Positions 52,326 through 53,735 of a DNA stretch of 64,000 nucleotides are shown piece by piece (position 1 is the stretch's first letter; every line of letters starts with the position of its first letter). The stretch is from an uncultured Gammaproteobacteria bacterium (GTDB lineage Bacteria > Pseudomonadota > Gammaproteobacteria > SZUA-229): assembly GCA_963768215.1 (NCBI GenBank), contig CAVYHW010000045.1, positions 1,821-65,820 on the forward strand. The letters run 5' to 3'. The position numbers and the translations under genes are program-made. The notes under the pieces are model-generated. The model made no database searches. It worked only from the letters and a program-made list of their open reading frames with translations, and had not been told where the DNA came from.

Positions 52326-52456
52326 AAGCTTTTCACCACAGAGGCACAGAGTACACAGAGTTTAATCATTAAATTTGTTAGATGCGCCGTAGGCGCATCT
52401 AACTAAATAATGATTTTACTCTGTGCTCTCTGTGCCTCTGTGGTGAAAAGCTTTTA
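52326..52456. repeat. ~130-bp palindromic REP/MITE-like element, copy 1 (arms AAAGCTTTTCACCACAGAGGCACAGAGTACACAGAG)
   Basis: Near-perfect long hairpin with a palindromic core (GTTAGATGCGCC-GTAG-GCGCATCTAAC). Related copy at 53620-53735. Confidence 0.75.
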
Positions 52457-52496
52457 ATGCTAAAATCACCCGACAATATTAATTGAGGAAATATCA

Positions 52497-53258
52497 ATGG
52501 CCTGGTGGGGGACATTTATTGGCGGCACCTTAGGTTACGTTTTTGGCGGGCCAATCGGTGCACTCATTGGTGCGGCGCTCGGCGGCAACCTGGACCGCGG
52601 TATCAAAATGGGTGACCAGTTCGATACCGGCAACCAGGAACGTGTACAACTGGCTTTTTTTACAACTACTTTTTCTGTTATGGGCCATATTGCCAAGGCA
52701 GATGGTCATGTTAGCGCACAGGAAATTTCTTCCGCCAAAAACATTATGGCGCAAATGCAGTTATCTGCTCAACAGCGAAAAGCGGCCATTAAGCTTTTTG
52801 ACCAGGGCAAAGCCACTGGCTTTCCACTAGAAGAGGTATTACACCAGTTTAAAAAAGAATGTCATGGTCGGCGCAACCTGGTCCAGATGTTTATTGAAAT
52901 CCAGATTGCCACAGCACTGGCTGACGGCAAAATCGATAGCAGTGAAAAACGCATTCTTTATACTATTGGTGAAATTCTTGGTTTCTCACGCAGCCAAATT
53001 GAGCACTTATTTAATATCGCAAATGGCGCCAAGGCCAGCGCCAGTGAAACATTAACATTGACCCAGGCATACAAAATTCTTGGTGTTAGCAAAGGCAGCA
53101 GTGAGGCCGAAATTAAAAAAGCTTATCGACGCCTGATGAGTCAGCATCATCCTGACAAACTTGTGGCGAAAGGTTTGCCCGATGAGATGATTGCTCTGGC
53201 GACAGAAAAAACCCAGGAAATCAGAAAAGCATACGATTTAATAAAAAAACACTTATAG
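52497..53258 (+). CDS. djlA: DnaJ-like co-chaperone DjlA
   Basis: N-terminal TM, TerB-like middle domain, C-terminal J-domain (YKILGVSKGSSEAEIKKAYRRLMSQHHPDK). Confidence 0.85.
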   Translation: MAWWGTFIGGTLGYVFGGPIGALIGAALGGNLDRGIKMGDQFDTGNQERVQLAFFTTTFSVMGHIAKADGHVSAQEISSAKNIMAQMQLSAQQRKAAIKLFDQGKATGFPLEEVLHQFKKECHGRRNLVQMFIEIQIATALADGKIDSSEKRILYTIGEILGFSRSQIEHLFNIANGAKASASETLTLTQAYKILGVSKGSSEAEIKKAYRRLMSQHHPDKLVAKGLPDEMIALATEKTQEIRKAYDLIKKHL

Positions 53259-53265
53259 GTTAACA

Positions 53266-53589
53266 ATGGAAATTACAGGCCCGCTAAATATTGGCGTTTT
53301 AGATAATGACACAGGTGGTCGAGAACTGCACCTGAGCTTTAAACCTGAATTTAGAATTTTAAATTTACAGCAGCAGACAGAAAGCTTTCAGGAGTTTATC
53401 AGCACTTTAATCAATCAAATCCAGAAACTTGATGCGTCTGATGTCAACCGTCAGGGCATGACCACTATCTTGCAAATTTGCGAGCAGTTAAAGCCACATA
53501 TTGAGAGTAATGAATTGCCGCTGGAAGAAACTATCGTGGTTAATATTCAGACCCATAGTCCGTTTGGCAATATTAAGATTTCGGGGTAG
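53266..53589 (+). CDS. Hypothetical 107-aa protein co-transcribed with djlA
   Basis: 8-nt gap after djlA. No known motif. Confidence 0.45.
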   Translation: MEITGPLNIGVLDNDTGGRELHLSFKPEFRILNLQQQTESFQEFISTLINQIQKLDASDVNRQGMTTILQICEQLKPHIESNELPLEETIVVNIQTHSPFGNIKISG

Positions 53590-53619
53590 GACTGTACTGA
53601 GAAATAAGCTTTAAAAACT

Positions 53620-53735
53620 TATTCACCACAGAGGCACAGAGTACACAGAGAAAAACTTTTTTTAAGTTTTTGCGCCGCAGGCGCACTAACCAATATAAGT
53701 TTTTCTCTGTGTACTCTGTGCCTCTGTGGTGAATA
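53620..53735. repeat. Palindromic REP/MITE-like element, copy 2 (arms TTCACCACAGAGGCACAGAGTACACAGAG)
   Basis: Same arm sequence as 52326-52456. The central loop differs (GCGCCGCAGGCGC core). Confidence 0.75.

Follow-up and report, generated by a model that had tools for sequence, protein, structure and literature searches.

The stretch of DNA analysed here (64,000 nucleotides (nt) from an uncultured gammaproteobacterium, hereafter the window) carries two palindromic elements, E1 and E2, on the two sides of djlA and of an open reading frame (ORF) of 107 amino acids (aa), orf107. We consider it probable, with some reserve, that E1 and E2 are independent ORF-less members of a cross-phylum repeat family which resembles miniature inverted-repeat transposable elements (MITEs), and whose full-length members enclose one gene of the GxxExxY family. 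By analogy, the best reading is that E1 and E2 would stand to the GxxExxY cassettes as MITEs do to the parent element or insertion sequence they derive from. Members of the family settle in intergenic regions between tandem or convergent genes, a few to a few tens of nt past stop codons. Turnover at a given site is quick, by gain, loss and replacement, and the segment between their arms can flip.

Structure of E1 and E2

Two related palindromic elements around djlA and orf107 were described in the original prediction, which was made from the letters of the window; inverted repeats, copies of a common 27-mer and RNA folds all confirm them. E1 occupies positions 52318..52461, where a repeat search finds an inverted repeat of 54 nt (52318-52371/52408-52461), 89% complementary, with a 36-nt loop region. 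E2 occupies 53615..53740, between the convergent orf107 and Xre-like genes, and its inverted repeat (53615-53663/53692-53740) measures 49 nt, is 92% complementary and leaves a 28-nt loop region. As single strands both form an almost continuous hairpin, with RNA folds of -97.1 kcal/mol (z -18.4) for E1 and -83.8 kcal/mol (z -16.9) for E2. The stems are about 55-60 bp long and weak and AT-rich at their bases.

Both elements share one arm plan: TTCAC, then three CACAGAG heptamers with spacers G and TA, and further inward an AT-rich stem and a GC tip. The 54-58 nt between the arms hold no ORF. The left arm of E1 (52332..52360, + strand), TTCAC-CACAGAG-G-CACAGAG-TA-CACAGAG, begins 13 nt past the stop codon of the ORF upstream, which has a LON substrate-binding domain; the right arm (52419..52447, - strand) repeats it in inverse form, apart from 2 mismatches within a spacer. 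The tip hairpin GCGCC-GTA-GGCGC (GCGCCGTAGGCGC, 52384..52396) stands on an AT-rich inner stem TTAGAT/ATCTAA. In E2, the left arm (53622..53650, + strand) begins 32 nt past the orf107 stop codon and is the same as that of E1 across TTCAC and the three heptamers, and the right arm (53705..53733, - strand) is a perfect inverse copy. The 54-nt spacer of E2 (53651..53704), which occurs in both orientations in natural populations, contains the tip GCGCC-GCA-GGCGC (GCGCCGCAGGCGC, 53672..53684). Both palindromic cores read precisely as first described.

The 27-mer CACCACAGAGGCACAGAGTACACAGAG has 4 copies in the window, solely in the arms of E1 and E2 (52334-52360, +; 52419-52445, -, with 2 mismatches; 53624-53650, +; 53705-53731, -), against 0 expected from shuffles. 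In the genome of the window, E1 and E2 have arms that agree down to the spacer bases, and it is at those bases that orthologues in other genomes differ. Compensatory changes are found at 9 of 35 stem pairs.

The elements match no RNA family on record. In the whole window Rfam at gathering thresholds returns one tRNA only and leaves E1 and E2 unmatched, and at E <= 10 it adds only generic long-hairpin microRNA models, far under their cut-offs. Nor are they intrinsic (Rho-independent) terminators, which consist of a short GC-rich stem-loop with a U-tract directly behind it, as a terminator scan calls neither of them and the U-tract signature is missing. Integron attC sites are recognized by R''/R' boxes of the form RYYYAAC...GTTRRRY and by extrahelical bases in an imperfect hairpin. 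E1 and E2 end in TTCAC/GTGAA instead and have symmetric arms with no bulged bases; in a test for attC boxes, about 25% of the cross-phylum arms described below end in AAC.

Arms in other phyla

Exact CACAGAGNCACAGAGNNCACAGAG, searched for in one genome per species, is present in at least 120 stretches, whereas about 0.3 would be expected in random sequence by our own estimate. Hosts among the matches listed include Planctomycetota, Acidobacteriota, Verrucomicrobiota, Chloroflexota, Nostoc (Cyanobacteria), Sorangium, Thermodesulfobacteriota, Chlamydiae, Spirochaetes and Methanothrix. BLAST adds a full hairpin of Bacteroides finegoldii, with arms TTCACCACAGAGGACACAGAGTACACAGAG, that begins 2 nt past the nadC stop codon, and a solo arm of Anabaena cylindrica (PCC 7122) with an identical 24-mer. 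Plasmids and phages contain unannotated copies only (Bacteroides, Nostocales, two gut phage contigs), and BLAST for the arm sequence gives no match in E. coli genomes.

When 139 arms with their purine spacers are aligned, conservation stops sharply at W-T-T-(C/A)-A-C. The conserved edge, TT(C/A)AC, lies 5-6 nt outside the first heptamer and forms a MITE-like boundary. An inverse arm follows at most 260 nt downstream in 86 of 142 arms and stands only upstream in 21, while 35 arms are solo. Among 48 cross-phylum hairpins evaluated with crude ORF calls, 0 lie between divergent genes, and the median distance from the stop codon of the incoming ORF to the hairpin is about 18 nt. The arms of E1 and E2 agree with this family in having at least two C-R-C-N-R-A-G heptamers at 8-9-nt spacing and a TT(C/A)AC end; they match the cross-phylum consensus as well as the arms of three cassettes with a GxxExxY gene (L173, L195, L202; L numbers denote loci).

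Because L035, from a Pseudomonadota metagenome-assembled genome (MAG), has the full E1/E2 architecture with a CGCC-TAC-GGCG tip at a locus unrelated to djlA, the tip-bearing subfamily is dispersed as well. The ORF upstream of this hairpin, read from its translation alone, is presumably sulfate adenylyltransferase-like. When the 3,406 ORFs of 120 loci, each of 8 kb, are clustered all against all, no transposase or recombinase recurs, and even the largest cluster of shared ORFs extends over just 9 loci.

GxxExxY cassettes

At L044, L088 and L094 the arms stand 420-500 nt apart and enclose one ORF, which belongs to TIGR04256 GxxExxY (E 1e-41 to 1e-43). The GxxExxY (PF13366/TIGR04256) genes enclosed by arms code for about 125 aa. 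Heptamer arrays flank all 5 GxxExxY ORFs in the 1.1 Mb of analysed DNA, and two of these loci had not been picked for proximity, namely L023 (CACGAAG hairpins on both sides) and L052. An unbiased tblastn sample of plasmid-borne GxxExxY genes has arrays at 4 of 8. Arms stand on both sides in Bernardetia and B. finegoldii, with TTCAC/GTGAA ends in the latter; in Sphingomonas the array abuts the GxxExxY ATG between fabD and fabG, and in Gemmatirosa a complete hairpin lies past the GxxExxY stop codon. Three abundant GxxExxY proteins, looked up by exact sequence, led to two further contexts, both of them armed. Altogether, arms are present in 10 of 14 independent GxxExxY contexts.

In one of the two further contexts, L199-L208 (about 365-815), the cassette lies exactly between the mod (N6_N4_Mtase) and res (ResIII) genes of a type III restriction-modification system, starting 4 nt past the mod stop codon and ending 5 nt ahead of the res ATG. 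Its left end reads CAC-CACGGAG-a-CACAGAG-gg-CACAGAG-aaca-ATG and its right end TGA-tccctt-CTCTGTG-tc-CTCTGTG-c-CTCTGTG-GTGAA. In the other, L181, L189 and L195 (Flavobacteriales metagenome or MAG contigs, about 330-990), a cassette splits the methionine synthase gene metH into an S-methyl_trans part of 344 aa and a Pterin_bind/B12-binding/Met_synt_B12 part of 897 aa. Here the outer arms hold the GxxExxY ORF plus a complete ORF-less hairpin. Two near-identical proteins occur in this split arrangement in each of the 20 contigs listed for them.

GxxExxY proteins form a very large family of at least 8,000 candidates, all with E <= 1e-10, and 120 of 120 among the matches listed are PF13366. The GxxExxY/PDDEXK_3 family was listed as being of unknown function with multiple transfers (PMC3424549). 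A high-confidence structure model (pLDDT, the predicted local distance difference test, 92.9) has Cas4 SSO0001, lambda exonuclease and RecE as its closest neighbours in a fold search, with weak matches (best E 3.5e-3), which are compatible with a predicted Cas4/lambda-exonuclease-like PD-(D/E)XK fold. A sequence search of PDB with GxxExxY and a scan of viral contigs with a GxxExxY alignment both returned nothing.

In a Fusobacteria plasmid (L177) and in Prevotella nigrescens (L178), GxxExxY genes have direct repeats of 20-70 nt at their flanks and no inverted heptamer arms, which points to another history of insertion or to a separate sub-family.

Turnover at the djlA-orf107 sites

The genes enclosed by E1 and E2 are those named originally, djlA and orf107, for whose 107-aa product Pfam has no match. 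The LON-domain ORF (51737..52318, +) has its stop codon end on the first base of E1. It is followed by djlA (52497..53258, +), a conserved syntenic gene outside the element, with a glycine-zipper N-terminus and TerB and DnaJ domains (a DjlA_TM domain is present in its orthologues), by orf107 (53266..53589, +) and by a convergent ORF with an Xre_MbcA_ParS_C domain (53752..54159, -). Just 3' of E1, an extended -10-like box for djlA, TG-n-TAAAAT, is located at 52458..52466 (+). Because the block TTTAAATGYTAAAAT with this box, some 30 nt upstream of djlA, is kept in nearly all relatives, hairpin or not, djlA probably has its own promoter downstream of E1. For orf107 we found 155 homologues with 75-100% identity; those with a source name come from uncultured Gammaproteobacteria, and orf107 follows djlA wherever the contig includes the upstream gene. 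An exact-sequence look-up has no protein identical to DjlA or to the LON-domain ORF on record.

The gene order FUR-(DUF1853)-LON-DjlA-orf107-Xre-like(-)-peptide deformylase is kept in about 45 related loci: it is seen in L125-L133, and a metagenome scan brought in 35 orthologous loci, where the flanks that were read fit the same order. What varies are the hairpins. The site downstream of orf107 was tabulated in 24 relatives and is empty in 10 of them (e.g. L141, L144, L151-L153 and L160), with an intergenic gap down to about 25 nt. CACAGAG hairpins occupy it in the window, L134, L137, L143 and L146, CGCAAAG hairpins in L135, L136 and L142, CGCAGAG/CGCGGAG hairpins in L138, L147, L154 and L158, and a CGCGAAT/CGCAAAA-type hairpin in L156. 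A mixed heptamer array is present in L145 and other heptamer arrays in L140 and L150. The site between the LON-domain ORF and the TG-n-TAAAAT box of djlA is just as variable. L143, L138 and L146 have hairpins at both sites, the two sites of L142 hold different heptamer types, and many relatives have a hairpin at one site alone or at neither. In L135, orf107 DNA is 96.6% identical to the window, and its hairpin is of the CGCAAAG type instead of CACAGAG. Because the type differs at all six heptamers despite such identity, the change is a replacement and not the outcome of stepwise mutation.

Some arrays at the orf107-downstream site are of other kinds. L125 (3340-3420) has a GGCCAAGGGA-like array with a 13-nt period, L140 has TAAGTTT arrays, and the GGCAGTT/ACTGCCAAC arrays of L150 are reminiscent of Beggiatoaceae TAACTGA repeats.

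According to the original prediction, the bracketed unit resembled a composite arrangement, and its presence or absence was to be compared between strains. The composite arrangement does not hold: the two genes are a fixed syntenic core pair in every related locus examined, with hairpins or with none, and only the hairpins come and go. Many dispersed copies unlinked to djlA, which were to count beforehand as a sign of coincidence, do exist (two more in the window, L035 and at least 120 loci elsewhere). Since the gene pair is fixed while the hairpins vary, the bracket is a coincidence of two insertion-prone intergenic sites and represents no functional or mobile unit. A false lead is thereby removed for the window, as djlA-orf107 is neither mobile nor cassette-like.

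Inversion of the E2 spacer

Close relatives L001 (European Nucleotide Archive) and L002/L134 (Joint Genome Institute) are 99.1% identical to the window over the 699 nt of flank upstream of E2. The E2 spacer of L001/L134 nevertheless matches that of the window at 91% as reverse complement and at 71% directly, whereas the spacer of L003 matches it directly at 93%. Each orientation is represented by two independent assemblies. The tip loops of E1-type elements among relatives also occur in both senses (GTA or GCA versus TGC). Occurrence in either orientation between inverted repeats is a trait that the E2 spacer has in common with invertons. A promoter scan calls none in the spacer, and the ORFs adjacent to E2 in the window include no recombinase. 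Because of this, and because the spacer lies between two gene ends, we suggest that the flip merely accompanies recombination or template switching, to which long inverted arms would lend themselves. Assemblies also break at such hairpins: contig L004 stops within an arm, and the first bases of L135 are the outer end of a hairpin. Both the flipping and the breaking of contigs are relevant to assembly and to software that detects invertible segments.

Other hairpins and repeats of the window

A relaxed search for heptamer pairs (C[AG]C[ATG][GA]A[GT]) gives 13 matches in the window against 1.0 expected, and every one falls inside four hairpins, all of them in tandem or convergent intergenic regions. 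Apart from E1 and E2, these include a distant family member between convergent genes at 62013..62154, with CACAGAT-gaa-CGCAGAT arms (62013-62036 and 62131-62154, 96% complementary), a 94-nt spacer and a fold z of -6.7. The original prediction had rightly seen a third, related hairpin here, although its coordinates (62029-62157) were slightly off. It had missed the fourth relative, a CGCAAAG-type hairpin at 48923-48988 within a member that spans 48922..48997 (TTCAC..CGCAAAG-ct-CGCAAAG plus inverse, fold z -4.1).

Hairpins armed with heptamer arrays are a general feature of this genome. Two more, at 20832-20926 and 46722-46783, have arms of tandem heptamers with sequences unrelated to CACAGAG, namely TTTTCAC/TTTTCAT units in the former and, in the latter, GTCATTN units resembling TTGGTCA, the cyanobacterial STRR2 (STRR, short tandemly repeated repetitive sequence).

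Further, an element of about 270 bp is present at 33333-33603, 41846-42118 and 45820-46108. Two copies are about 93% identical and have 35-nt terminal inverted repeats CTAGGGCGCCTCTGATCAAATCTATTATGTTTCTG; the third copy is diverged, with a central CTTG..AAGGACTA.GGCCATT block in common. It has no Rfam match at gathering thresholds and looks like a separate MITE or structured-RNA family. The gene for tRNA-Thr(CGT) (34554-34630, -) lies in the region 34256-34748 with a hairpin of 41-nt arms, 95% complementary, on one side (34650-34748) and nested inverted repeats on the other (34256-34534). These surroundings may be an integration or repeat hotspot.

Discussion

How E1/E2-type elements move we infer from sequence comparisons. 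The elements would spread at the DNA level, and a GxxExxY nuclease with affinity for the heptamer arrays might mobilise them in trans. After insertion a hairpin would be transcribed within the 3' end of the upstream gene as a very stable stem-loop, and its likeness to hairpins that protect or insulate 3' ends might be why it is tolerated. Where a cassette is complete, its 5' arm could pair with its 3' arm and so mask the translation start in or beside the purine-rich arm. Flips of the spacer would arise by recombination or template switching between the arms.

A bolder extension is possible, though we would sooner expect it to fail than to hold. Inverted TT(C/A)AC-(CRCNRAG)n arms together with a GxxExxY gene might constitute an unrecognised class of minimal mobile cassettes across phyla, in which the nuclease mobilises both the cassettes and the ORF-less hairpins. 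Such cassettes would insert just past stop codons, even between mod and res of a type III system or inside metH, and the long-range stem of the arms in the host transcript would keep the insertion harmless and expression of the nuclease down.

Several observations weigh against the elements being MITE-like relatives of GxxExxY cassettes. No consistent direct repeat that could represent a target-site duplication stands beside E1, E2 or their orthologues, and the exact junction of an empty site is not definable, as intergenic DNA of the empty sites is too diverged. Heptamer arms are missing in 4 of the 14 GxxExxY contexts. Identical GxxExxY proteins have one genomic context each, so that recent transposition of a full cassette is not seen, and neither the window nor some 100 kb of DNA from related gammaproteobacterial loci contains a GxxExxY gene. 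The cross-phylum scan was seeded with CACAGAG only, so its counts are lower bounds and its taxon list is incomplete. Finally, the shared arms could stem from a common RNA-level function or host factor instead of common descent.

That last thought leads to a serious rival, in which the hairpins are selected by the host and evolve in place, as bidirectional terminators or stabilisers of mRNA 3' ends, with no transposition at all. Heptamers would recur through shared constraint, such as a host RNA-binding protein or Shine-Dalgarno/anti-Shine-Dalgarno-like GAGG/CCUC content, and be homogenised by slippage and gene conversion. The position just past stop codons and between convergent genes, the very stable structures and the compensatory changes in stem pairs all agree with this; moreover, a TTTAAAAAC-like left flank recurs beside hairpins of different heptamer types, and these types differ by single-base steps, with mixed arrays in L145 and L133. 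We still find it unlikely, given that the U-tract signature of terminators is missing, that many relatives have no hairpin and a 25-nt intergenic gap, and that the different type at all six heptamers of L135 arose too fast for stepwise mutation at 96.6% identity of orf107 DNA. A TT(C/A)AC boundary common to several phyla and arms tied to one gene family point to a transmissible unit. The flipping of the E2 spacer in near-identical strains might mean that a recombinase turns it to control a neighbouring gene. This is very improbable, since the spacer has only 54 nt with no promoter called and lies between convergent 3' ends, where neither orientation could drive a gene; there is no adjacent recombinase gene, and with inverted repeats of 36-49 nt a flip can come about through ordinary recombination or through template switching. 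Least credible of all is a composite mobile unit, with the two hairpins as transposon-like ends carrying djlA and orf107. It has in its favour two near-identical inverted-repeat elements 1.15 kb apart around two genes and the double hairpins of L143, L138 and L146, but synteny of the whole neighbourhood is kept with both, one or neither hairpin, the two sites of L142 hold different heptamer types, copies exist at loci unrelated to djlA, and E1 and E2 encode nothing and hence are no autonomous flanking insertion sequences.

Likeness to known repeats has to be weighed as well. The original prediction spoke of REP/BIME-type (repetitive extragenic palindrome/bacterial interspersed mosaic element) or MITE-type repeats. 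Dispersed intergenic palindromes with presence/absence differences at orthologous sites do fit this description in its broad sense, whereas the defining sequence features of REP/BIME fail, and neither a target-site duplication nor a transposase-encoding parent, as expected for MITEs, was found. A classical MITE, i.e. a deletion derivative of an insertion sequence with a DDE transposase, moved in trans, is in our view rather improbable here. E1 and E2 resemble bacterial MITEs (Correia, ERIC, that is, enterobacterial repetitive intergenic consensus, Nezha and Chunjie) in that they measure 100-150 bp, encode nothing and have terminal inverted repeats, a sharp outer boundary, presence/absence differences and variable interiors between conserved ends. 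However, no target-site duplication is seen, no transposase family that could mark a DDE-transposase parent recurs in the 120 loci of 8 kb (largest ORF cluster, 9 loci), and arms of tandem heptamers are atypical as inverted repeats for binding of a transposase. No ORF apart from GxxExxY recurs between the arms. A cassette of about 0.5 kb with this one gene would be the parent, and the elements stand immediately past stop codons. Slightly more improbable still are REP/BIME elements or REPINs (inverted REP pairs) kept and moved by a REP-associated tyrosine transposase (RAYT, a Y1 transposase) elsewhere in the genome. REPs are defined as imperfect palindromic units of 20-40 nt that have GTAG or CGTC as a tag on one side (PMC3733652); for REPINs see PMC3116915. 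E1/E2-type elements share their lifestyle, being short hairpin-forming palindromes of intergenic regions, at gene 3' ends and not in divergent regions, presumably transcribed as stable stem-loops, with genome-specific sequence types and fast turnover. E1 and E2 have no such tagged unit, though, but tandem, non-palindromic heptamer arrays as arms; GTAG appears solely in the tip loop of E1 (GCAG in E2), and the linked gene between the arms codes for a PD-(D/E)XK GxxExxY protein, not for a RAYT. REPs are lineage-specific, whereas the arm sequence is common to several phyla.

STRRs and the nested small dispersed repeats of Nostoc, the latter reportedly treated by Elhai et al. in 2008, are close to the present elements. 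The nearest repeats in the literature covered are heptamer direct repeats, TAACTGA among them, of Beggiatoaceae, Cyanobacteria and Bacteroidetes (PMC4679880). Common traits are intergenic tandem heptamers, a patchy cross-phylum distribution suggesting horizontal spread, and nested small hairpins. STRR and TAACTGA repeats are, however, mostly contiguous direct repeats with a 7-nt period, often upstream of start codons, whereas E1/E2-type arms have an 8-9-nt period with spacers of 1-2 purines, are inverted and have a fixed TTCAC end, and the elements lie downstream of genes and are linked to GxxExxY. Neither inverted CACAGAG-type arms nor a GxxExxY link are described for the heptamer direct repeats (PMC4679880) or known for the STRR and Nostoc repeats.

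The full cassettes have a parallel in intervening sequences of 23S rRNA, where a small ORF sits inside a long stem, and in homing-endonuclease genes, which can be free-standing. In all of them a small selfish ORF in a long-range stem lies within a host transcription unit in host orientation, and a nuclease-fold protein is the only product. GxxExxY cassettes differ in residing between protein-coding genes, not in rRNA.

The literature on CACAGAG/CTCTGTG hairpins, heptamer repeats, GxxExxY and PF13366, which was covered incompletely, yielded no description of the family or of its link to GxxExxY; novelty of both is probable, not certain. Locally, the finding is ordinary in kind, as intergenic palindromic repeats are. 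The family is more interesting than expected, with its cross-phylum terminus, the tie to a huge family of nuclease-fold proteins, flipping spacers and turnover at hotspots. Taken together, GxxExxY genes are tied to an inverted-repeat signature with many ORF-less derivatives, and this provides a testable hypothesis for the function of GxxExxY. It may also help to explain the intergenic hairpins with heptamer arrays in Planctomycetota, Acidobacteriota, Cyanobacteria, Bacteroidota and others.

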